NCBI GenBank assembly: GCA_029555385.1
Contig: JAKPSH010000288.1
Span: 26,718 to 90,717 of the forward strand
Reading direction: 5' to 3'
DNA length: 64,000 bases
Origin: Pseudomonadota bacterium
GTDB lineage: Bacteria; Bdellovibrionota_C; UBA2361; SZUA-149
Shown: in pieces, positions 4,688-24,846 of the stretch
How the letters are laid out: every line of letters begins with the position of its first letter
Position numbering within the stretch: the first letter of the stretch is position 1
The notes under the pieces: generated by a model
What the model was told of the DNA's origin: nothing
The model's input: only the letters and a program-made list of their open reading frames with translations
Database searches by the model: none
Translations under genes and position numbers: made by a program

Positions 4688-5803
4688 ATGAAATACATTC
4701 AAGCCAAACTACTCGATGCGCTGGAGATGTTCCAGTATTCCTACCGCTTCCGGGATTCCCTTTTTGTCCTCTTTCTTCATCCTGATGTTCCGCTCGAGAG
4801 CATCTTGACTGACTTGAAGCTGCTTCAGTCGTCGCACATTACCGCAATGCTCGTCTGCCGTGATCACAACGGACTTGACGTTAAGCTGAAAAAGTTGACG
4901 GAGCGCGGGCTGCGGTTCTGGCACATTCCGCTGAGCACCGCCCAAAGCGCACGCGGCGAAAAGGCGAGGAAAATTACCTCGGCGTGCACCAACAACATCA
5001 TCCCTGTCCTGGCACTGCCTGTAATTGAAAGCCAATCACCCGGCGAACTTTGCCAAGAGGCCCTTGCGCTTGCCGAAATGTACGATGCAGACAAATTCTT
5101 TTACATTTCTCCGGAACGTGGATTAAGCGTTAAGGGAGTGCTTCAATCCCATCTTTCTCCGAGCGAACTTGACAATATCTTGTCCGAAGCACAAGCACTG
5201 AATATTGATCGCACCTTGCTGGGACTCTTGCGCCAAACGAGTACAGAAAGCGACCTTGAAATCGTACTGCTGGAAGGAGCAAGCGGCAGTCTGTTTCAAG
5301 AAATCTTCACCCACCGTGGACGAGGCACGTTGCTGACTAACGAATATCCGAACATAATCCGCCGGGGACGACTGCGCGATGTGTTTGATATCTCCCGCCT
5401 GCTGCGTCCTTACATCGAAGACGGCACCATCCTGCCTGCATCTGAAGACGAAGTAGCTGAACAAATCAACAGCTATTTTGTCTACACGGTGAACAATGCA
5501 ATTGTTGCCGCAGCGCAGCTTGTCGACTACGGCACGGCGGCAGCGTTATCCAAGTTCTGCACTCTGCCGCGTTATCAGGGCAAGGGCCGGGCGCGGAAAC
5601 TGGCAAAAAAGATGATTGCCGCAGCCAAAGCCCAGGATAAGGAACGCGTGTTTGCCTTAAGTATCTCGCCCCGAATGTGGTCGTTTTTTGCGAGGTTAGG
5701 CATGCGGGAAGTGCCGCGCGAGACTCTTCCCGATGAATGGAAAAAAGATTACGATTTTTCCCGGCCATCAAGAGCATTTGCACTGGAGCTGCGCACTAAC
5801 TAG
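4688..5803 (+). CDS. ArgA-like amino-acid N-acetyltransferase (shortened amino-acid-kinase-like N-domain + C-terminal GNAT)
   Basis: 'LFQEIFTHRGRGTLLTNE' and 'YQGKGRARKLAKKMIAAAKAQ...VFALSIS' align with the E. coli ArgA linker/GNAT region; 371 aa. Confidence 0.6.
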   Translation: MKYIQAKLLDALEMFQYSYRFRDSLFVLFLHPDVPLESILTDLKLLQSSHITAMLVCRDHNGLDVKLKKLTERGLRFWHIPLSTAQSARGEKARKITSACTNNIIPVLALPVIESQSPGELCQEALALAEMYDADKFFYISPERGLSVKGVLQSHLSPSELDNILSEAQALNIDRTLLGLLRQTSTESDLEIVLLEGASGSLFQEIFTHRGRGTLLTNEYPNIIRRGRLRDVFDISRLLRPYIEDGTILPASEDEVAEQINSYFVYTVNNAIVAAAQLVDYGTAAALSKFCTLPRYQGKGRARKLAKKMIAAAKAQDKERVFALSISPRMWSFFARLGMREVPRETLPDEWKKDYDFSRPSRAFALELRTN

Positions 5804-5837
5804 CCGTAATATCACATTCACCGCCAGAAGCTGTGAG

Positions 5838-7790
5838 ATGTTGCGGTCAGGCAGCACTTTGACATTTGGAGCCTTTAGCGCAGGATTTCTGATGAATTAC
5901 AGCATAGCTGAATTTAGTAGTATTCCTCAGGCCTTCTTCGCGATTGCCTCTTCGCGTCCTAGCGATGTACTCTGCCGTCAGGCAATTTTCGATCAGCCCG
6001 GTGATGCCGCACAACGCCCCCGTAAGTGGCGCAGCACTACTTACCGTGAAGCAGCAGCGCGAATTACCTCGCTCGCAGCCTATTTGCGCTCAATCGGTGC
6101 CGGGCGGGATACTAAAGTTGCCATTCTCTCAGCAACCCGTCCGGAATGGCTGGAAGCCGACATCGCCGTGCTGTCCCTGGGATGCGTATCGGTATCGATT
6201 TATCAGACGCTGCCAACGGATACGATCGCTTACATCCTTTACGACTCGGGAGCCAAGATCGTATTTGCCGAGAACCAAGAACAGGTCGACAAACTGCTCA
6301 GCGTTGCGCAAACGGCAAACTTCATTCCTGGTCATGAAGATCGCGCAGAAACAGTGGCGCAAATCGAAATGTTGAAGATTATATCCTTCGAAGCTGTTGC
6401 CGCTCACCCGCTTGTTCAATCTTATCAAGAGATCGTTGAACAATATCCGGCTCCGGAACAGACGGCCATCGACTATTCTTTGACAAAGGACGATTTGGCC
6501 TGTCTGGTTTATACCTCGGGCACAACCGGTCCGCCAAAGGGAGTCATGCAGTCTCACGGTAATCATCTAGCCAACGTGCGCCAAATCAGTTCGCTGCCGT
6601 TCATTCGCGATGATTCCGTTATCTTTCTTTTTCTTCCGTTGGCGCATTCTTTCGCCAAACTTGCCGGATATGCAGGCTTTCTCACCCCGGCCAAGCTGTG
6701 CTTTCCGGCTGTTTTCAGCAAGACAGCATCAACAATCGACAAATCATCGCTCGCCGCAGATATGCGCGAGTCTGAAGCTACGATATTTCCCGTAGTGCCC
6801 CGCATACTGGAAAAAATGCAGGAAACGATCGAACACCAAGCGGACCGGAGCGGAGTAATGGGATGGCTGCTTCGTTGTTTCCTCTCCTGCGCACGCCAAA
6901 GGTTCTGCGCCAGACAAACAAAGTCACGAGCCTGGTTGGCGGAGATATGTTTTTTGCTGGCTTTGCCCCTCAGACAAAAAATCCAGCGCATGTTGTTCGG
7001 CCGCAAGTTCAGGATCTGCGTCTGCGGAGCCGCGAAGCTAATGACGGAGACTGCTGAATTCTTTGAAATGCTGGAGCTGGAAATTGTGGAAGGTTATGGC
7101 CTTACCGAAACATGCGTGGCTAACACCGCCACCCAGCCAAAGAAAAAAAAGCTGGGCAGTGTGGGCAAGCCGCTTGCGGCAGACATCGAAATCAGCCTGG
7201 CACAAGACAAAGAAATTTTGATTCGCGGGCCCCACGTGGCCAAAGGCTACTATCAGCGGCCTACGTCAACACGCAGCGCATGGGGCAGCGATGGCTGGTT
7301 TCACACCGGAGATTTGGGCGAAATCGACGTTGCGGGCAACCTAACAATTATCGGGCGGAAGAAGGAAATCCTCGTCTCCTCCAATGGCAAGAAGATCGCC
7401 GCGTTTACCGTTGAGAAGCGGCTCTGCTCCCTGCCCTTGATTGGCTACAGCGTCTTGGTGGGAGAAGGAAAACCTTACTGCGTTGCCTTGATTAGTCTGG
7501 AGGCGGCGCAAGTACAGCGATGGGCAGCAAAAAACAATATTACGCTCAATGCCAATCTGCATGAAGACGCCGCAGTAAAACAAGAAATCGCTGCCCATAT
7601 TGCAGAGTGCAACACACATTTCGGCAATTTCGAAGCTGTGCAAAAGTTTTATCTCGTTCCGCGCGCCTTCTCCATCGAAGGCGGCGAACTCACACCGACC
7701 TTGAAAGTAAAGCGCGATACGGTGCTGCGGCACTATAAAGACGAAATAGAAACAATGTATCACCACAGCCAGACAACCTTACAAAAGTGA
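5838..7790 (+). CDS. Long-chain acyl-CoA synthetase (AMP-binding, FadD-like)
   Basis: AMP-binding motif 'YTSGTTGPPKGV', 'GYGLTETC', C-terminal 'TPTLKVKR'; ORF track start 5733 overlaps the upstream gene, so the first internal ATG (5838) was chosen. Start uncertain (5892 also possible). Confidence 0.8.
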   Translation: MLRSGSTLTFGAFSAGFLMNYSIAEFSSIPQAFFAIASSRPSDVLCRQAIFDQPGDAAQRPRKWRSTTYREAAARITSLAAYLRSIGAGRDTKVAILSATRPEWLEADIAVLSLGCVSVSIYQTLPTDTIAYILYDSGAKIVFAENQEQVDKLLSVAQTANFIPGHEDRAETVAQIEMLKIISFEAVAAHPLVQSYQEIVEQYPAPEQTAIDYSLTKDDLACLVYTSGTTGPPKGVMQSHGNHLANVRQISSLPFIRDDSVIFLFLPLAHSFAKLAGYAGFLTPAKLCFPAVFSKTASTIDKSSLAADMRESEATIFPVVPRILEKMQETIEHQADRSGVMGWLLRCFLSCARQRFCARQTKSRAWLAEICFLLALPLRQKIQRMLFGRKFRICVCGAAKLMTETAEFFEMLELEIVEGYGLTETCVANTATQPKKKKLGSVGKPLAADIEISLAQDKEILIRGPHVAKGYYQRPTSTRSAWGSDGWFHTGDLGEIDVAGNLTIIGRKKEILVSSNGKKIAAFTVEKRLCSLPLIGYSVLVGEGKPYCVALISLEAAQVQRWAAKNNITLNANLHEDAAVKQEIAAHIAECNTHFGNFEAVQKFYLVPRAFSIEGGELTPTLKVKRDTVLRHYKDEIETMYHHSQTTLQK

Positions 7791-16741: not shown

Positions 16742-17590
16742 TTAGGCCGCCTTGGTTTTGGCCTTGATGACGGCTGCCGGCTTGCGCTCGCGGCCTGCCA
16801 CGGGCCGGCGGCGGCTGCGGCGGCGCGCACTGGCACTGCGCATATTCGCACTGCGCTCGACAAGGGCCGTTTCGGCTATTGTTTCTTCCTGCTGGTGTTC
16901 CTGCTCTACGGTTCCACCGAGCAGGTCACGCAGCCGGTCGAGAGCTGTCTTCTTTACTCGCGAAATATGGCAGCGGCTATAGCCCAAGGAGCGGGCAATA
17001 TCGACAAGCGGCTCTTCTTCGGAGAACGAACGTCCAACAATCTCTTTTTCCAGCGTATCAAGCTTTGTCACGGCAGCGCGGCATTGATTGATTCTTTCCT
17101 TGCGCAGCAGCTCATGCTCCGGCGTCATAATATCGCGCTGGGTGAAGAGAAAATGGTCCGGAACAAAAGGCGTGTAGCCGCTCGCCGCAAGATACTGCCA
17201 ATCCCCCGTCTCGATGCCGTTGTTTTGCGCATAAGCCATGAACATACTGCTGGCTTGAGCTGCCCTCGTGACGGCACGCACAAGATGTCCTCGCAGATGG
17301 TAAAAAAGGAAAGTCATGAAGGTGGCGCCGTGTTCATCACTGAAGCGCCTTGCCGCTTCACAAAGCGCAAGATCGACGATGCTGTCGATTTCATCTGCCG
17401 GCATCCGTACGCGCCATCTGCGCAGAATGCTTCGCGCAAGCTTGCGTCCGTTTTCGCGGTGACTAAGTATTAGCTGAGCGACCTGCCGCTCATTGGCTTC
17501 AGTGCTCTTCTTTTCGGCTTGTTTCTTTTTGGTCGACTGAGAAACTACTGTTTTCTTGAAAGCAACCGCCCGAACAACCCCCCGTTTCAT
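16742..17590 (-). CDS. Sigma-70-family sigma factor, group 3 (FliA/sigma-28-like), with Lys-rich N-terminus and Arg-rich C-tail
   Basis: Region 2 'IDSIVDLALCEAARRFSDEHGATFMTFLFYHLRGHLVRAV'; region 4 'EIVGRSFSEEEPLVDIARSLGYSRCHISRVKKTALDRLR'; start set at the ATG preceded by GGAGGA (track start 17650 also possible). Confidence 0.7.
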   Translation of the reverse strand: MKRGVVRAVAFKKTVVSQSTKKKQAEKKSTEANERQVAQLILSHRENGRKLARSILRRWRVRMPADEIDSIVDLALCEAARRFSDEHGATFMTFLFYHLRGHLVRAVTRAAQASSMFMAYAQNNGIETGDWQYLAASGYTPFVPDHFLFTQRDIMTPEHELLRKERINQCRAAVTKLDTLEKEIVGRSFSEEEPLVDIARSLGYSRCHISRVKKTALDRLRDLLGGTVEQEHQQEETIAETALVERSANMRSASARRRSRRRPVAGRERKPAAVIKAKTKAA

Positions 17591-17887
17591 GCTCCTCCAC
17601 CCCCTGGAAAACCCCCAAACGACGGGAAATAACCCGGCTTTGGGCCGCACACTGCATTAATAACCCCACGAAATGTGGTTTATTTGAATTCCACCAACAA
17701 CACTCTCTACTCGATAAAATGAGCAAAATCGCTTCGCTACCGGGATAAGGCCCTGATATTATTGGGCTATCGCCCTCAGTATCTAGATCAGGACAAGAAA
17801 ATAGCTCGAGAAGGATAATTGACGCGCCGACTAACCAGGTAGGACAATTCAACAAAGCGCCACTGTGTTCCGTAGAATGGGGAACTG

Positions 17888-18754
17888 ATGAGCACACCAA
17901 ACGAGTATGCAGCATTTCCAGCGGGAAGCGACGAACTAATCGAAAAGATAGTCGCCGAAAACTTAGGATGGGCTACGAGCATCGCGAAGGCCGTTGCGCG
18001 CGCGTGGAACATGGACTGGCAGCTTGATGGACTGGACGGCGGCGCCTACGAAGCATTGCTGTTTTGCGCCCGGCGCTACGATGCCACCAGAGGCGTGCCG
18101 TTTCGCGGCTACGCCCGCCGCCGTATTCATGAAGCGTGCACGGAAGAAGCTCGCAAGTCCAAGACCTGGCAAATGGGAACCGGCACAAACTCTGAAGTGG
18201 AACAGGAAGCCCGGGAAATTTCGGCCAAGTTATTTGATTTGTTTCCGGAATTACGCGACGGATACCTGCCAATCAGCGAAAGCGAAGACGATGCGGATAT
18301 TACGGTGCGCAGCTCCATTAGACAGATGCTGACGGGAGCGAGCTTAATTGCTGCTTTTCAAAGCTCGCCGAGCGAAAATCCGGAACTGGCCATTGAATAT
18401 AAACAGCTCCTGATTCATTTAGCGCAGCTTGAACCGGTCCACCAAGAAATTATCTGGGCTATTTACTACAAGGGACAGTCCATGCGGGCACTGGCCGAAG
18501 AGTGGCAGATTGATGATTTATCCGTGATTCGCGAGCACAAAGAAATCCTCGCTAATCTCTGCTCGCGCATCGAAGCGCCGAAATCAAGGGCAATCCGCCG
18601 GCTTAAGATCCGCCGCGGCCTGCGCACTATCGCACAGCAGCTTCGCCGGAACAAAGAAGACGGGCCGTTTTCGAAATTTCTCGCCGAAACTGCGGTGCTT
18701 ATTTTTGCACCCCTGGCGGCCCTTTTTGCCTGGCTGGCAAAGCTGATCGTTTAA
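17888..18754 (+). CDS. Sigma-70-family sigma factor, group 3, with C-terminal hydrophobic tail anchor
   Basis: Region 2 'AYEALLFCARRYDATRGVPFRGYARRRIHEA'; region 4 'QEIIWAIYYKGQSMRALAEEWQIDDLSVIREHKEIL'; last 25 aa 'FLAETAVLIFAPLAALFAWLAKLIV' form a predicted TM helix. Confidence 0.7.
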   Translation: MSTPNEYAAFPAGSDELIEKIVAENLGWATSIAKAVARAWNMDWQLDGLDGGAYEALLFCARRYDATRGVPFRGYARRRIHEACTEEARKSKTWQMGTGTNSEVEQEAREISAKLFDLFPELRDGYLPISESEDDADITVRSSIRQMLTGASLIAAFQSSPSENPELAIEYKQLLIHLAQLEPVHQEIIWAIYYKGQSMRALAEEWQIDDLSVIREHKEILANLCSRIEAPKSRAIRRLKIRRGLRTIAQQLRRNKEDGPFSKFLAETAVLIFAPLAALFAWLAKLIV

Positions 18755-18810
18755 ACCCGTAACCAAAACTATTGTGAACACTCAGAAATAGATTAGGACG
18801 GAGGAAGCAG

Positions 18811-19137
18811 ATGGTAAGAAAGATAGGTGACAAGCCGGGAGCTGCGGGCACTTCTTCCATTCAGTCGACGCGCAGCATAGAAAGCACCAAGATCGGCGAA
18901 GTCGAGCAGGTCAAAGCTGCTGATAGCCGAAGCGGTGTGGGCGCGGTGCGGCGGTCGACCCGTCAACTAACACCCGAACAACAGCAAGAACTGTTGGCGA
19001 TGATCAACGAAGAAGCTGATCGCATGTTCGACGAAGGGACGCTGCCTAGGTCCAAAAAAGACACCGTAAAAGGCGCCGTGCGCATGGCCATCGAAGCCAG
19101 CATGGTCGAGGAAGAAGAAACGAAAAAGAAAAAATAG
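18811..19137 (+). CDS. Small charged hypothetical protein (108 aa) downstream of the sigma factor gene
   Basis: Strong RBS GGAGGAAG 5 nt upstream of ATG; Ser/Thr-rich N-terminus, acidic helix 'LTPEQQQELLAMINEEADRMFDE', K/E tail. Confidence 0.55.
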   Translation: MVRKIGDKPGAAGTSSIQSTRSIESTKIGEVEQVKAADSRSGVGAVRRSTRQLTPEQQQELLAMINEEADRMFDEGTLPRSKKDTVKGAVRMAIEASMVEEEETKKKK

Positions 19138-19488: not shown

Positions 19489-20595
19489 TTACGCTGCGGC
19501 TCTTAATAACCCCCCAGTCCTCGTCGTCCGTTCAACCAGCGCATAACTCGAGCGTATGACTTCGCGGATTGGTGTGCTGCTGCGCTGCGAGAGCGCGTTA
19601 TAGGCCACGTATGCCAAGACCGCTTCCTGCAGGTGCTCTTCAAGAGAAAGAGAAAGCGTATCATGAAGCCACTTCAGAGCCGACAACGCGGGATTACTCT
19701 CCTCCGGCGCAAACTGCAGGCCGCACAGCGCAAGGAGCAGGATCGCCTGTTCCCGAACGACTGTCCCGGTTTCACGCCGAAACCAAGCTTCGTTCAGCAG
19801 CTCCGCAGCCGCACGTATATCCTGCTGGGTTTCCATGCCCAGATGAAGCAGCCACGGCAGAGCAAAACGCGCCCCTGCTTTGCTGCCAAGAAGCGGGATC
19901 AGCTTACCGGCGTCAGTCGAATCGTCCGGAAACACCGCTCGCATTGCCTGATTAAGCCCCGGGCTCTGACCATGGGAATCTGCCTCGACCACGGATACAC
20001 TTAGCTCGTTCGCGAAACGCGGATTCATCATGCTAACTACGATTCCTGCGCGATTGCGGACCACCTCAACGGAGTGCTTACGTTCTCCCTGCCAATTCGC
20101 TTGCAACAGAATCTGGTCAGGCTGCTCTAACGCCATCTTTAATGCCTCCACGGCAGAGCCGCCAATCGCACAAAGCAAGCGCAAAGCAGGCCAAAACCAG
20201 GTTTCGTGAGGTGAGCTGTCAGTAAGCCAGGTCACAACCGTCCTCGCAGCATCGCCTGCCCCTTGACGGAAGTCATCTGTCGCAAGAAGCTCCGCAGCCA
20301 CGAGCCGCAACTCAGGCACGCAGGGGTGTCGCAGCGCACGCAAAATCAGCGCAATGTCCTCGGCTCCAACCACTTCGGAAGCCGCCTGGCCATGAAGTTG
20401 CACTATCGCTTGCCTAAGCCAGGAGATTGCTTCGTCTGTCGCCCCCCCGGCAATCACGTCAAGCCTTGCACGCGCTTCATCCAGACTACCGGCTTTCGCC
20501 AATCGGCCAAGTTCCTCCATCCCGGCCATGGCGATAAAACTGGCGTCATGACCAATCTGCTGAAAGGCTTTTCTTAGAGAACTCCCTTTGCACAT
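19489..20595 (-). CDS. HEAT/PBS-lyase-like repeat protein
   Basis: Repeated about 30-aa alpha-helical units with 'AA..LG.IG...A...L...L.D' periodicity (e.g. 'ALILRALRHPCVPELRLVAAELLATDD'). Confidence 0.5.
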   Translation of the reverse strand: MCKGSSLRKAFQQIGHDASFIAMAGMEELGRLAKAGSLDEARARLDVIAGGATDEAISWLRQAIVQLHGQAASEVVGAEDIALILRALRHPCVPELRLVAAELLATDDFRQGAGDAARTVVTWLTDSSPHETWFWPALRLLCAIGGSAVEALKMALEQPDQILLQANWQGERKHSVEVVRNRAGIVVSMMNPRFANELSVSVVEADSHGQSPGLNQAMRAVFPDDSTDAGKLIPLLGSKAGARFALPWLLHLGMETQQDIRAAAELLNEAWFRRETGTVVREQAILLLALCGLQFAPEESNPALSALKWLHDTLSLSLEEHLQEAVLAYVAYNALSQRSSTPIREVIRSSYALVERTTRTGGLLRAAA

Positions 20596-21755: not shown

Positions 21756-22052
21756 TCATTGATTATTCCTTGTGCCGATGGACAGCCATTGCACCACTTG
21801 ATTCAACATCGCCTGTTCGCTTGCGAGCTGGGTATTCTGCTCCGGATCGCTCTCTGTCGCCGCAACCAGTTCCTCATATTTGCGCTCGATTCCAGATGCC
21901 AGTTTCGGCAAGTCAGTCAACTCGCCGAGTTTAGGCAGAAGCACGGCAAGGGGCACAACGGAAAGGCGTTCTTTGCTCCTGAGCGGATCTGGCGCGGTGT
22001 CATCACCATCTTGATCAAGGCCGTCCGGCCTGCCTTTCCTATTCCACCACAT
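21756..22052 (-). CDS. Hypothetical acidic protein (98 aa) immediately downstream of truncated flhB
   Basis: ORF only; no FlhB C-domain motifs (no NPTH). Confidence 0.35.
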   Translation of the reverse strand: MWWNRKGRPDGLDQDGDDTAPDPLRSKERLSVVPLAVLLPKLGELTDLPKLASGIERKYEELVAATESDPEQNTQLASEQAMLNQVVQWLSIGTRNNQ

Positions 22053-22061
22053 GACCCATCC

Positions 22062-22940
22062 CTATCTTAGTTTCGATTTCGCCCCCGGCGGCGCTTCTCC
22101 GCGCTCCCGGTGCGCGCTTTTCATTTCCGGGGCTTGGTCGGTCTCCCGGTATTCGGCCTCCAGCTCGGCCCGGCTCATCCGGTGTTCCTGCCGGAAGGCA
22201 AGCCATACCGCAACATAACCGCACACACCGGCAAAGAGGGAGAAAAACAGCGCAGTCTGCCAAACTGACATGAATAAACCTTTCGCCCAATCAAGTCTCG
22301 CACTTAGACTTAAGGCTGTCAAAAACTCTGTATTATCGGACAGCGCCGTGGAGACGACACCATTTCCCGGAGCGTTTCCGCCATCCAGCATCACGGAGCG
22401 TCCCACACCGGCTGCCGGCATTTTCGCAGGAAGAACGGTATACAGCAAAACGCAAGACGCTGCGGCCCAGACAGCGACAACCACGGCACCCGCACCGGCA
22501 GCGAGCAGGCGTTTTCTTGCACCATCCCAGATCCAGCCGCCGGATTTGAAGAAACGCGCCATACCCGGCTGAAAAAGCGCAAAGGAAAACAAGAATTTCG
22601 TCTGTAATGCACCAAGCAACAGCACTATCGCAAAAAACGGCACGACAAACGATAAAACTGTTTTGGCCAAAGCCCGGCTAATTTGCGCAGCACTCAGCGC
22701 TAAAGCCTTTGAGGCTGGTTCGTTTCGCAACCATTCGCTGCCGGATGAAGCGCTCCAAGCATCCCGGGCTAAAGCGGCAATGCTGGCTGCCGCCACAGGC
22801 AAACTGACTATGGCTCCCACAAGCGCGCCCAGCACCACGGCAAAACACATCACCGCTTTGCTGTACGGAACAGTCCCCGAACTGCGCAGCCGCTCTAATT
22901 TAAGCGCCGTAGGCGGAAACCTTTTCATTTCCTCAGCCAT
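22062..22940 (-). CDS. flhB: FlhB/SctU-family export-gate protein, membrane domain only (C-terminal cytoplasmic NPTH domain absent)
   Basis: N-term 'MAEEMKRFPPTALKLERLRSSGTVPYSKAV' matches the FlhB 'EKTE.PT.KKL...R..G.V..SKE' start; 4 TM segments; ends at '...EMKSAHRERGEAPPGAKSKLR*' where the FlhB linker begins; no NPTH in any frame downstream. Confidence 0.65.
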   Translation of the reverse strand: MAEEMKRFPPTALKLERLRSSGTVPYSKAVMCFAVVLGALVGAIVSLPVAAASIAALARDAWSASSGSEWLRNEPASKALALSAAQISRALAKTVLSFVVPFFAIVLLLGALQTKFLFSFALFQPGMARFFKSGGWIWDGARKRLLAAGAGAVVVAVWAAASCVLLYTVLPAKMPAAGVGRSVMLDGGNAPGNGVVSTALSDNTEFLTALSLSARLDWAKGLFMSVWQTALFFSLFAGVCGYVAVWLAFRQEHRMSRAELEAEYRETDQAPEMKSAHRERGEAPPGAKSKLR

Positions 22941-22962
22941 AATCAATTCCCAAGCGAGATAA

Positions 22963-23856
22963 TCATTGCGGCTCCTCGCCCGTGGACGGATGCACATCCG
23001 CAGGCTTCGGCGCCGGAGCCGTCTGAACTTTCATTTGCGCAAGCACGCTGCCCGCGCGTTTCGGCATCAAGGACTCCGAAATGAGCTGTGACAAATCGCC
23101 AGCAATTGAATAAAGACAGAGAGCCAAAACAATCAGCACACACACTGAGCGCACCGCCGCCGCGATATCTGCCTGAAATGCCTGCGCCAAATATCTCTTC
23201 CATGGCAGGTGCACAAAATCAATAATCAGGGCCGCGGCAAACATGGGCAGCGCAAAAACGAAAGCAACGGCCAGAGCCGCTTTGGCGCCGTGCGCGATCA
23301 GCTCCGCCACCTGCGGCGTCACGGCAAATTGCACATAACCCGCCATGCTTTCCAGATACGGAAAAGCAAATAAAGATCGTCCAAAAAATGCCCATAAGAA
23401 AGGAAAATCCGGACTGGCGCAAAGCAGAGCCGCAACGAGCAAAAGCACAACCGTCTCCACCGGCGGCGCGCTTTGTTCCGGAAGTGCCCGGTTCGAGTGT
23501 TTTGCAAAGGTCACTGCGCTGAGCCAGCGGGCAAAAGTCTGGGCAGCATAGCCGGCAAAACCCGCGGCAACCGCGAGAACTAAACCAATTCCGGCCTCAA
23601 CAATCAGCACGCCAGCCCGCGGCATTACTGGCGCCGTTGCGGAGACACGTCCCGCCTCAATCGCCAGTAAAACATCGAACAGCGATAAATCCCGCAAAGC
23701 AGGCACATAGGGGATAAAGAAAACGGTAAAACCAACAGCCAGAACAAAACGCACACTGAGCGGCACTACCCGCCACGGAAGGATACTTAAAGCGCAGAAA
23801 AACACGGAGATGCGCACAGTTAAAGCGACCAGGCAGAGCACGGCAAACGAAGTCAC
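22963..23856 (-). CDS. fliR: Flagellar/T3SS export-gate protein FliR/SctT
   Basis: Six or more TM helices, position between fliQ and flhB, about 297 aa with extended C-tail. Confidence 0.7.
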   Translation of the reverse strand: MTSFAVLCLVALTVRISVFFCALSILPWRVVPLSVRFVLAVGFTVFFIPYVPALRDLSLFDVLLAIEAGRVSATAPVMPRAGVLIVEAGIGLVLAVAAGFAGYAAQTFARWLSAVTFAKHSNRALPEQSAPPVETVVLLLVAALLCASPDFPFLWAFFGRSLFAFPYLESMAGYVQFAVTPQVAELIAHGAKAALAVAFVFALPMFAAALIIDFVHLPWKRYLAQAFQADIAAAVRSVCVLIVLALCLYSIAGDLSQLISESLMPKRAGSVLAQMKVQTAPAPKPADVHPSTGEEPQ

Positions 23857-23877: not shown

Positions 23878-24132
23878 TTATTGATAGAGCGAAAGATTGC
23901 CCCACGCACTTGCTGTAAAAGCGAACAACTCTGAGAAAAAACGCCCGAGTGCAAAATACCCCACGAGAAACAGCCCGGCCAGTTTTCCCGTAAAACTAAT
24001 GACCTGGTCGTCGATTTGCGCAGTTACACGCAGCACCGCCGCAACAAGCGCACCGCAAATTACCGCTAAAAGCACCGGAACACTAAGGTGCACTGTGAAG
24101 AGCAGCGCGTTGATTATTTGCGTTGTATCCAT
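23878..24132 (-). CDS. fliQ: Flagellar/T3SS export-gate protein FliQ/SctS
   Basis: 84-aa two-helix hairpin membrane protein 'MDTTQIINALLFTVHLSVPVLLAVICGALVAAVLRVTAQIDDQ' typical of FliQ. Confidence 0.75.
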   Translation of the reverse strand: MDTTQIINALLFTVHLSVPVLLAVICGALVAAVLRVTAQIDDQVISFTGKLAGLFLVGYFALGRFFSELFAFTASAWGNLSLYQ

Positions 24133-24138
24133 CGCCGC

Positions 24139-24846
24139 CTAAAAGTAAGTCGAAACCAGATTGCCTGTGATTAATGTCCAGCCGTCAAGCACGACAAACA
24201 AAAGCAGTTTAAACGGAAACGCCACCATCGCCGGATTCATCCGCTCGAGACCTACCGCAGTAAGCGCCGTCGCCATGAATAAGTCGAGCACGAGGAACGG
24301 CAGGAAAAGAGTCAGCCCCGCAGCAAACGCCTCTTTCAGCTCAGAAACAATGAAGGCGGGACCGAGCACTCGCCACGAGCTGGTCAGCGGCTCAGCCTGA
24401 ACATCTCCCCGCGGCTGCTGAGCCGGCGCGGCTCCCGCGTTTGCCGCGTCAAAACGCCCCGCCAAATCAGCAAACCGCTCGACTGTTTCTTTGTGCGCTT
24501 GCGCGCGCAAAAACGTCTTCCACTTTTCGAGTCCGGCATCAAAGGCTTCCGCGCGGACTTTGTCGGTAACCGGAGTGCCGGCCGCCTTAAGCACGTCATC
24601 AATAGCCCCGGACGAAGCAGCCAGCGTGGGATACATCACAAAGAATGAAAGAGCCAGTGCCAGAGAACCGACCACAAAGGAAGAGGCAAGGCTGCACAAG
24701 CCCAAGCCAAGCCGCAGGATGCTCAGCACTGTGACAATTTTCACATAAGCACTAAAGGCCAAAGCAAGCAGCACCACAAGAAAGATGGTGAAGCCGGACA
24801 GACCTAAGCCTGCAAATACTGATGTTGAGTCCACGCTGCGCCGCAA
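24139..24846 (-). CDS. fliP: Flagellar/T3SS export-gate protein FliP/SctR
   Basis: 'LFLPFLVLDLFMATALTAVGLERMNPAMVAFPFKLLLFVVLDGWTLITGNLVSTY' matches the FliP signature 'IPFLIIDLVIASVLMALGMMMVPP...LPFKLMLFVLVDGWQLLVGSL'. Confidence 0.85.
   Translation of the reverse strand: MRRSVDSTSVFAGLGLSGFTIFLVVLLALAFSAYVKIVTVLSILRLGLGLCSLASSFVVGSLALALSFFVMYPTLAASSGAIDDVLKAAGTPVTDKVRAEAFDAGLEKWKTFLRAQAHKETVERFADLAGRFDAANAGAAPAQQPRGDVQAEPLTSSWRVLGPAFIVSELKEAFAAGLTLFLPFLVLDLFMATALTAVGLERMNPAMVAFPFKLLLFVVLDGWTLITGNLVSTYF

Follow-up and report, generated by a model that had tools for sequence, protein, structure and literature searches.

In type III secretion systems (T3SSs), the cleaved C-terminal domain (C-domain) of FlhB/SctU is the docking site for early substrates (rod, hook or needle type), and the ruler protein acts on it; until the ruler removes it, the domain keeps the machine in an 'early' mode. 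The NPTH autocleavage domain is regarded as universal and indispensable in FlhB/SctU. The members of the family are said to 'all contain' it (Kuhlen et al. 2020; PMC7064499), and we found no description of a naturally truncated SctU or FlhB in the open-access literature. Here we describe a short sctU gene, its relatives and the locus around it, on a stretch of 64,000 nt referred to below as the window (GCA_029555385.1, contig JAKPSH010000288.1, positions 26,718 to 90,717 of the forward strand).

A truncation of this kind is known from Salmonella, where an flhB stop codon at position 258 was isolated and a ΔCCD version was built (Chevance et al., mBio 2026; PMC13344023). Together with the loss of Fluke, these alleles lock the apparatus in the late mode, in which neither the hook-basal body nor FliK is needed, and the early substrate FlgE is no longer exported (PMC13344023). 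The truncation point is near-identical to that of the proteins described here (stop 258 as compared with ~246-255 in FlhB numbering). However, the Salmonella mutants are engineered and flagellar, and require Fluke loss and overexpression of the basal body, whereas the truncation in the present family is natural, apparently ancient, non-flagellar and known from sequence. A second point of comparison is the needleless T3SS* of Myxococcus xanthus, or 'Myxo' non-flagellar T3SS, which our loci resemble in having SctD, SctJ, SctQ, SctRSTU and LcrH-like chaperones, in coming from a lineage formerly placed in the Deltaproteobacteria, and in that no secretin, needle or translocon gene was seen in the loci examined (PMC3459982; PMC10433427, PMC12075869). 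This likeness concerns visible gene content only, with flanks of up to 10 kb, and establishes no membership.

By its membrane part, short SctU is a member of the FlhB/SctU superfamily, and it lacks the NPTH motif and the C-domain, features that are regarded as defining. The N-terminal cytoplasmic segment and the four transmembrane helices of the family are present, and the gene sits directly 3' of sctR-sctS-sctT. Pfam Bac_export_2 matches the protein at E 2.8e-20, with the best-scoring stretch covering profile positions 3-116 of 335. The NCBIfam SctU/FlhB equivalog models align to it up to positions 236-239 of 341-352, which leaves no NPTH domain inside the open reading frame (ORF), and score 19-46 bits as compared with full-length cut-offs of 349-739 bits. 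A profile of short SctU and its nearest relatives aligns with Salmonella FlhB residues 5-242 and with the YscU linker peptide. In a larger alignment, the C-terminus is equivalent to Salmonella FlhB residue ~250, about 18 residues ahead of N269 of NPTH; the FlhB reference in this alignment was approximate, and its register agrees with that of the profile alignment against the PDB sequence. An earlier note on this DNA, made from the letters alone (hereafter the sequence-only reading), had the protein ending right after its membrane domain. The protein does stop before NPTH, but about 40 cytoplasmic residues of the linker (FlhB-CN) are kept, the conserved HRMSRAELEAEYRE motif included. The ORF given in the same reading (22062-22997, minus strand, 311 amino acids (aa) counted from the first ATG) is real and is the longest for this gene, but the start likely lies at 22940 rather than 22997; this start (MAEEMKR) is used in the gene calls of other assemblies and in all homologues, and gives a protein of 292 aa.

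The hydropathy profile of short SctU has four hydrophobic segments, and the AlphaFold model (46-sequence alignment; predicted local distance difference test (pLDDT) 85.5; predicted template modelling score (pTM) 0.76) has four long helices at residues 28-65, 76-113, 136-173 and 204-252, in agreement with the four transmembrane helices previously noted from the sequence. Helices 2 and 3 are joined by a loop (114-135) and helices 3 and 4 by a disordered one (174-203), short linker helices occupy 257-267 and 271-281, and the N-terminus pairs with the start of the linker. Within the helix 2-3 loop, the motif G-x-L-Q-T-(K/R)-F-L-F is invariant or nearly so across the short family. The corresponding parts of FlhB wrap and gate FliPQR/SctRST, with the loop between helices 2 and 3 known as FlhB-L (Kuhlen et al. 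2020; PMC7064499). Short SctU has thus retained the elements with which the SctRST channel is built and gated, namely the N-terminal motif, the four helices, the helix 2-3 loop and the start of the CN linker, and has lost the NPTH domain. Compared with canonical SctU/FlhB (PF01312; TIGR01404 for SctU and TIGR00328 for FlhB; Salmonella FlhB, Yersinia YscU and Shigella Spa40/SpaS), short SctU shares the N-terminal motif and four helices, the Q-T-x-F-L-F loop, the CN start M-S-R-x-E-x-x-x-E-x-R-E and the place after sctR-S-T. Unlike these proteins, it is without NPTH and the ~110-residue globular domain that serves early-substrate docking and the ruler signal, and its loop between helices 3 and 4 is longer and poorly conserved.

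The absence of the NPTH domain, also proposed in the sequence-only reading, is borne out across the window by a motif scan, by tblastn and by a profile hidden Markov model (HMM). The motif NP[TES]H is missing from all six frames across the 64 kb, so that what had been noted for the next 300 bp holds for the entire window. Six canonical C-domains used as tblastn queries matched the window in a 22-26-aa stretch of the linker only, whereas the same queries recovered the C-domain in control loci at E values of 1e-19 to 1e-42. An unfiltered NPTH-domain profile HMM run on six-frame translations gave nothing in the window better than E 4, and matched canonical control loci only (E 1e-35 to 1e-43). 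An approximate Salmonella FlhB query, which is too divergent for the purpose, had no useful tblastn match in the window. The C-domain was likewise not detected by tblastn or the unfiltered HMM in any short-type locus examined (eight related loci), and none of the short-family members aligned has NPTH at the expected position. Between the stop codon of short sctU and the ATG of a 98-aa gene lie 9 nt, and no other frame runs on.

The short form is widespread. We searched 1.84 billion representative proteins exhaustively with a profile and retrieved 152, among them 117 of 225-300 aa. At E <= 1e-10 the search yields 112 proteins, which measure 205-300 aa bar a few fragments and are mostly matched end to end, and FlhB/SctU proteins of 345-377 aa with NPTH enter only from E 6e-11 downward, behind ~110 short clusters. 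In all, more than 110 clusters at 50% identity have the short form. The C-termini of the 117 short proteins map to Salmonella FlhB residues 246-255 (median 251), and in none of them is the NPTH motif in place. Alignment with homologues from relatives confirms that proteins of 20-40% identity end at the same position as short SctU, those of 26-40% identity after the motif HRM(S/T)RxExEAExRE...PE...A.RE, and this end is common to the proteins P0002, P0003, P0006 and that of locus L008. P0003 is a fragment rather than a still shorter variant, because a run of N interrupts sctU in L005/L007; in this Bdellovibrionales metagenome-assembled genome (MAG), the short sctU (5447-6288) was called as two genes of 107 and 176 aa. 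The records of the relatives are labelled 'uncultured Bdellovibrionales', 'Deltaproteobacteria bacterium' or 'bacterium', and the copy described here stems from activated sludge. The retained linker motif HRM(S/T)RxExEAExRE is the best-conserved segment of the short family, as expected for a part under selection. Since the short form and its neighbourhood are kept across proteins of 20-40% identity, the loss of the C-domain appears to be ancient. Taken together, the sequence evidence indicates that short SctU is a conserved natural variant and no broken gene.

Gene order around short sctU is also conserved. We compared the related loci L001, L005/L007, L006, L012, L014, L015, L018, L019 and L022, and found that every locus with downstream sequence keeps the order sctR-S-T-U(short), followed by a small gene (89-160 aa) and a gene of ~130-145 aa, the latter with tetratricopeptide repeat (TPR) matches wherever these were tested or precomputed. 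SctR of the window is 57% identical to SctR of L001 and L005, and the NCBIfam EscR/YscR/HrcR subfamily model scores it at 143.8 bits as compared with 129 bits for fliP. Ahead of sctR, the longer loci encode a Pkinase-HEAT protein, two SctD-like proteins of the FHA/YscD type, SctJ, a ~80-aa ORF, a 158-aa FliJ/YscO-like protein (the SctO-like gene) and SctQ; in L001, L012 and L019, SctD, SctJ, SctO-like, SctQ, SctRSTU and TPR chaperone-like genes are all present. The presence of SctD and a short SctJ identifies the system as a non-flagellar T3SS. In the window and the longer loci, the operon adjoins genes for a PMT_2 glycosyltransferase, RNase PH and Ham1, although not all of these in every locus, and its continued position beside such housekeeping genes argues for vertical inheritance. 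In the Pkinase-HEAT protein, which is large, and the two FHA-domain SctD-like genes that open L001 (1-5083), L012 (88-5264) and L019 (1-4552), these loci recall the PknD/CdsD pairing of Chlamydiae.

The ruler gene sctP stands between sctO and sctQ in a number of well-known injectisome operons. No ruler gene was found at this place in the related loci, where the sctO-like gene abuts sctQ (L001 6437-7988, L012 6563-8082, L019 5776-7318 and L022 1245-2788), in keeping with a SctU that has lost the domain the ruler acts on. The window itself has no sctD-to-sctQ block, and upstream of its sctR lies a PepF peptidase gene; the T3SS genes seen in the 64 kb are sctRSTU and the two downstream genes only. 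Neither the window nor the flanks, which reach up to 10 kb, showed any translocon genes.

The small gene between short sctU and the TPR gene is present in every related locus with downstream sequence, and homology to the 98-aa protein of the window was shown for part of these. This family, which we call the hairpin family, comprises 39 homologues, all unnamed or 'hypothetical', and was met only in the context of short sctU. Its members have a variable disordered N-terminus, an invariant P-x-x-V-L-L-P (MPLAVLLP) and, at the C-terminus, a helical hairpin that closes with E-x-x-M-L-x-Q-x-x-x-W; in the AlphaFold2 model of the 98-aa protein (pLDDT 67), the helices span residues 48-68 and 70-96. Neither Pfam nor NCBIfam has a match for the protein, searching PDB sequences with the family also gave nothing, and a fold search with the model returned generic helical hairpins only. 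Needle MxiH and inner rod proteins were among the non-significant fold matches (E > 1), and a needle or rod identity was not assigned. That the 98-aa protein might be a displaced SctU C-domain can be ruled out with certainty, as it has neither sequence nor fold similarity to SctU-C; it was rightly noted as unrelated to FlhB, since its predicted disordered N-terminus and helical hairpin differ from the alpha/beta fold of that domain.

The 131-aa TPR protein, 44-50% identical between loci, matches LcrH_SycD (TIGR02552) at E 1e-09 and 38.2 bits and SctY (NF052415) at E 2.1e-05 and 25 bits, in both cases without reaching the curated cut-offs (104.8 and 70 bits, respectively). Matches to PDB structures confirm the general TPR fold and include PcrH (2xcb). 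This arrangement is similar to class II chaperone pairs (LcrH/SycD/PcrH with translocators; SctY with SctX), in which an all-TPR protein of ~130 aa stands beside a small protein with a disordered N-terminus, and the conserved MPLAVLLP of the hairpin protein is a motif of the hydrophobic-x-hydrophobic-x-x-P type. Unlike in those pairs, the TPR scores stay below the cut-offs (38 vs 104.8 and 25 vs 70 bits) and the partner matches neither translocators nor SctX. The two downstream genes look like those of a putative T3SS substrate or regulator and its chaperone. In L008, from the Deltaproteobacteria MAG SJ526 of high guanine-cytosine content, a 251-aa short sctU is followed by a 299-aa ORF (819-1718) whose end is TPR-like. 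Either the hairpin and TPR genes have fused here, or the ORF was called too long.

Building on the observed domain loss, conservation of the short form, synteny and retained gate elements, we propose, at a probability of roughly 60%, that short SctU is a natural and functional SctU variant of a non-flagellar T3SS that has lost the switch domain and operates in a single 'late-like' mode. A gate without the C-domain would make no early-to-late switch. It would export a single class of substrates, chaperone-delivered and 'late-like', either constitutively or under other control, and the hairpin and TPR proteins would be the best candidates for such a substrate-chaperone pair. We infer a single-mode exporter because the natural proteins end only a few residues from the mutant stop at 258, and such an exporter also fits the lack of a ruler gene between sctO-like and sctQ and the presence of chaperone-type genes nearby. 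Of the explanations offered in the sequence-only reading, a gate without substrate-specificity switching is thus favoured, with the Salmonella flhB stop-258/ΔCCD alleles as precedent.

Several points weigh against this proposal. The ΔCCD apparatus of Salmonella assembled inefficiently and needed overexpression and Fluke loss (PMC13344023), which makes the precedent an imperfect model. None of sctV, sctN, sctL, a secretin gene or a needle gene was seen in the 10-kb flanks of the loci, and the searches for the C-domain covered the 64-kb window and the related loci with flanks of up to 10 kb. The substrate-chaperone role of the downstream pair is a weak assignment, drawn from HMM matches below cut-off and a generic hairpin fold. 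More generally, export by this system, its mode and the roles of substrate and chaperone are deduced from these comparisons.

The alternative that survives best, which we consider unlikely, is that SctU is split, with the NPTH domain encoded as a separate small gene elsewhere, joining the membrane part non-covalently and retaining the switch. Stand-alone FlhB-C-like small proteins do occur in other bacteria. T3SS genes are moreover scattered in this lineage, with sctV and sctN in no locus seen, and the genomes were viewed in part (the 64-kb window and the 10-kb flanks). However, the C-domain was undetected in the window and in all short-type loci by an HMM that readily recovers its controls. 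The short proteins also stop ahead of the beta-strand that precedes NPTH, and for this reason a separate C-domain would probably have to do without the usual strand pairing and the covalent tether that exists before cleavage.

It is improbable that the locus is the relic of a machine that no longer secretes proteins, its SctRSTU(short) core being kept for another membrane function or slowly decaying. A relic might explain why several core genes were not met in the surroundings of the operon, and why the window has no sctD/J/O/Q block and a peptidase gene upstream of sctR. Against this, the ORFs are intact and the gene order is maintained across 20-40% identity and more than 110 clusters, and conservation is strong in the gate loop, the linker motif and the two downstream genes. 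The depth of this conservation makes a non-secreting relic unlikely, an argument that Abby and Rocha used for the systems of Myxococcales (PMC3459982).

Less probable still is a functional replacement, in which the role of the C-domain would have passed to the hairpin and TPR pair or to the kinase/FHA module of the relatives. In its favour, short sctU is followed directly by a small gene and a TPR gene wherever a locus has downstream sequence, the hairpin family was met in no other context, and Pkinase-HEAT and FHA-SctD genes head L001, L012 and L019. The pair has neither sequence nor fold similarity to SctU-C, however, and its features fit an ordinary substrate-chaperone pair equally well. 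An artefact or recent lesion in one genome (assembly error, frameshift or fresh nonsense mutation), as raised by the sequence-only reading under the headings of sequencing error and recent truncation or pseudogenisation, is refuted, since a JGI metagenome contig and an ENA activated-sludge contig show 100% identity over 2.1-2.9 kb around short sctU, a new gene begins 9 nt beyond the stop with no frame continuing into a C-domain, the same stop is found in distant homologues and all relatives, and more than 110 clusters are short.

Table 1. Features of the window, with coordinates counted from its first nucleotide
Feature	Position	Strand	Remarks
short sctU	22062..22940	-	292 aa; N-terminal motif, four transmembrane helices, gate loop, first half of CN linker
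sctT (FliR/SctT)	22963..23856	-	Pfam Bac_export_1 E 3.4e-08
sctS (FliQ/SctS)	23878..24132	-	Pfam Bac_export_3 E 6.4e-08; NCBIfam fliQ and SctS models match
sctR (FliP/SctR)	24139..24846	-	first operon gene in the window; Pfam FliP E 8.4e-45
~100-aa hairpin protein (98 aa)	21756..22052	-	candidate chaperoned export substrate or regulator
TPR protein, 131 aa	21348..21743	-	candidate class II (LcrH/SycD-like) or SctY-like chaperone; Pfam TPR_19
divergent sigma-70-family factor and 108-aa protein	17888..19137 (17888-18754; 18811-19137)	+	neighbour module
second sigma-70-family gene	16742..17650	-	region 4, weakly FliA/WhiG-like; Pfam Sigma70_r4; NCBIfam sigma70-ECF 50.9 bits
368-aa ORF	19489-20595	-	between TPR gene and sigma module; no Pfam or NCBIfam match
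Ser/Thr kinase and ankyrin-repeat protein, 649 aa	43839-45788	+	eukaryote-like domain combination
inward-rectifier (Kir-type) potassium channel homologue, 345 aa	45936-46973	+	IRK and IRK_C domains

Beyond the TPR gene, the window carries a module of a divergent sigma-70-family factor and a 108-aa protein (Table 1), which are 63% and 45% identical, respectively, to a pair beside the T3SS operon in L005. A sigma-like gene with a ~105-aa partner occupies the same position in L012, L014, L015, L018 and L019, and the small proteins align with each other. Every longer locus has such a pair beside its T3SS operon. Where coordinates were obtained, the pairs lie on the minus strand (L005 7091-8329, L012 11729-12942, L014 10780-11999, L018 6097-7273 and L019 12841-14133). 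The divergent sigma factor of the module has weak FliA/WhiG and ECF matches. Its ~106-aa partner is rich in Ser, Thr and Gly at the N-terminus, carries EEA-x-K-M-F as its conserved core and ends in an acidic tail, and the 108-aa protein of the window has no FlgM match in Pfam or NCBIfam. Judging from its position, the module is a possible regulatory partner of the T3SS, and one could speculate that the ~106-aa protein is a secretion-coupled anti-sigma factor acting in the manner of FlgM.

The second sigma-70-family gene of the window shares 62% identity with its counterpart in L005, and it is one of the neighbours that recur, not all of them in every locus, between the window and the longer loci. 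Near the operon, a FliA-like sigma factor that is complete with regions 2, 3 and 4 (~249 aa) is encoded in L014 (5876-6896, minus strand), where it has a 78-aa neighbour, and in L018 (10407-11153, plus strand), which hints at a link to flagellar-type regulation. For the 368-aa ORF, tblastn revealed no counterpart among the proteins of L001 and L005; at or near its position, L018 encodes a HEAT-like protein and L019 a periplasmic binding protein. Farther along, the window encodes a protein that joins a kinase domain to ankyrin repeats, a eukaryote-like combination that is frequent in effectors of host-associated bacteria, and a homologue of inward-rectifier potassium channels (Table 1).

In a wider and more tentative reading, which we hold possible but doubtful, short SctU would mark an ancient clade of non-flagellar T3SSs without hierarchical secretion or a length-controlled needle, which would export the chaperoned hairpin protein and may control the neighbouring sigma factor and ~106-aa protein through an FlgM-like circuit.

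The annotation of these proteins is affected in any case. A near-identical copy of short SctU (288 aa, in the same 90% cluster) is named 'export apparatus switch protein' at NCBI, and annotation pipelines thus pass a 'switch' function to proteins that are unable to perform switching. The retained SctRST and SctU-TM-CN (membrane part and CN linker) offer a minimal gate for structural and mechanistic work. The short form also marks a T3SS lineage that probably builds no length-controlled needle. A clade that lives without the domain would lend natural support to the 2026 model (PMC13344023), according to which the cleaved domain is an inhibitory module for early-substrate docking and its removal sets the late mode. 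If the proposal of a switch-less clade is true, these bacteria would provide a living example of a switch-less T3SS and the natural counterpart of the 'locked-late' FlhBΔCCD mutant.

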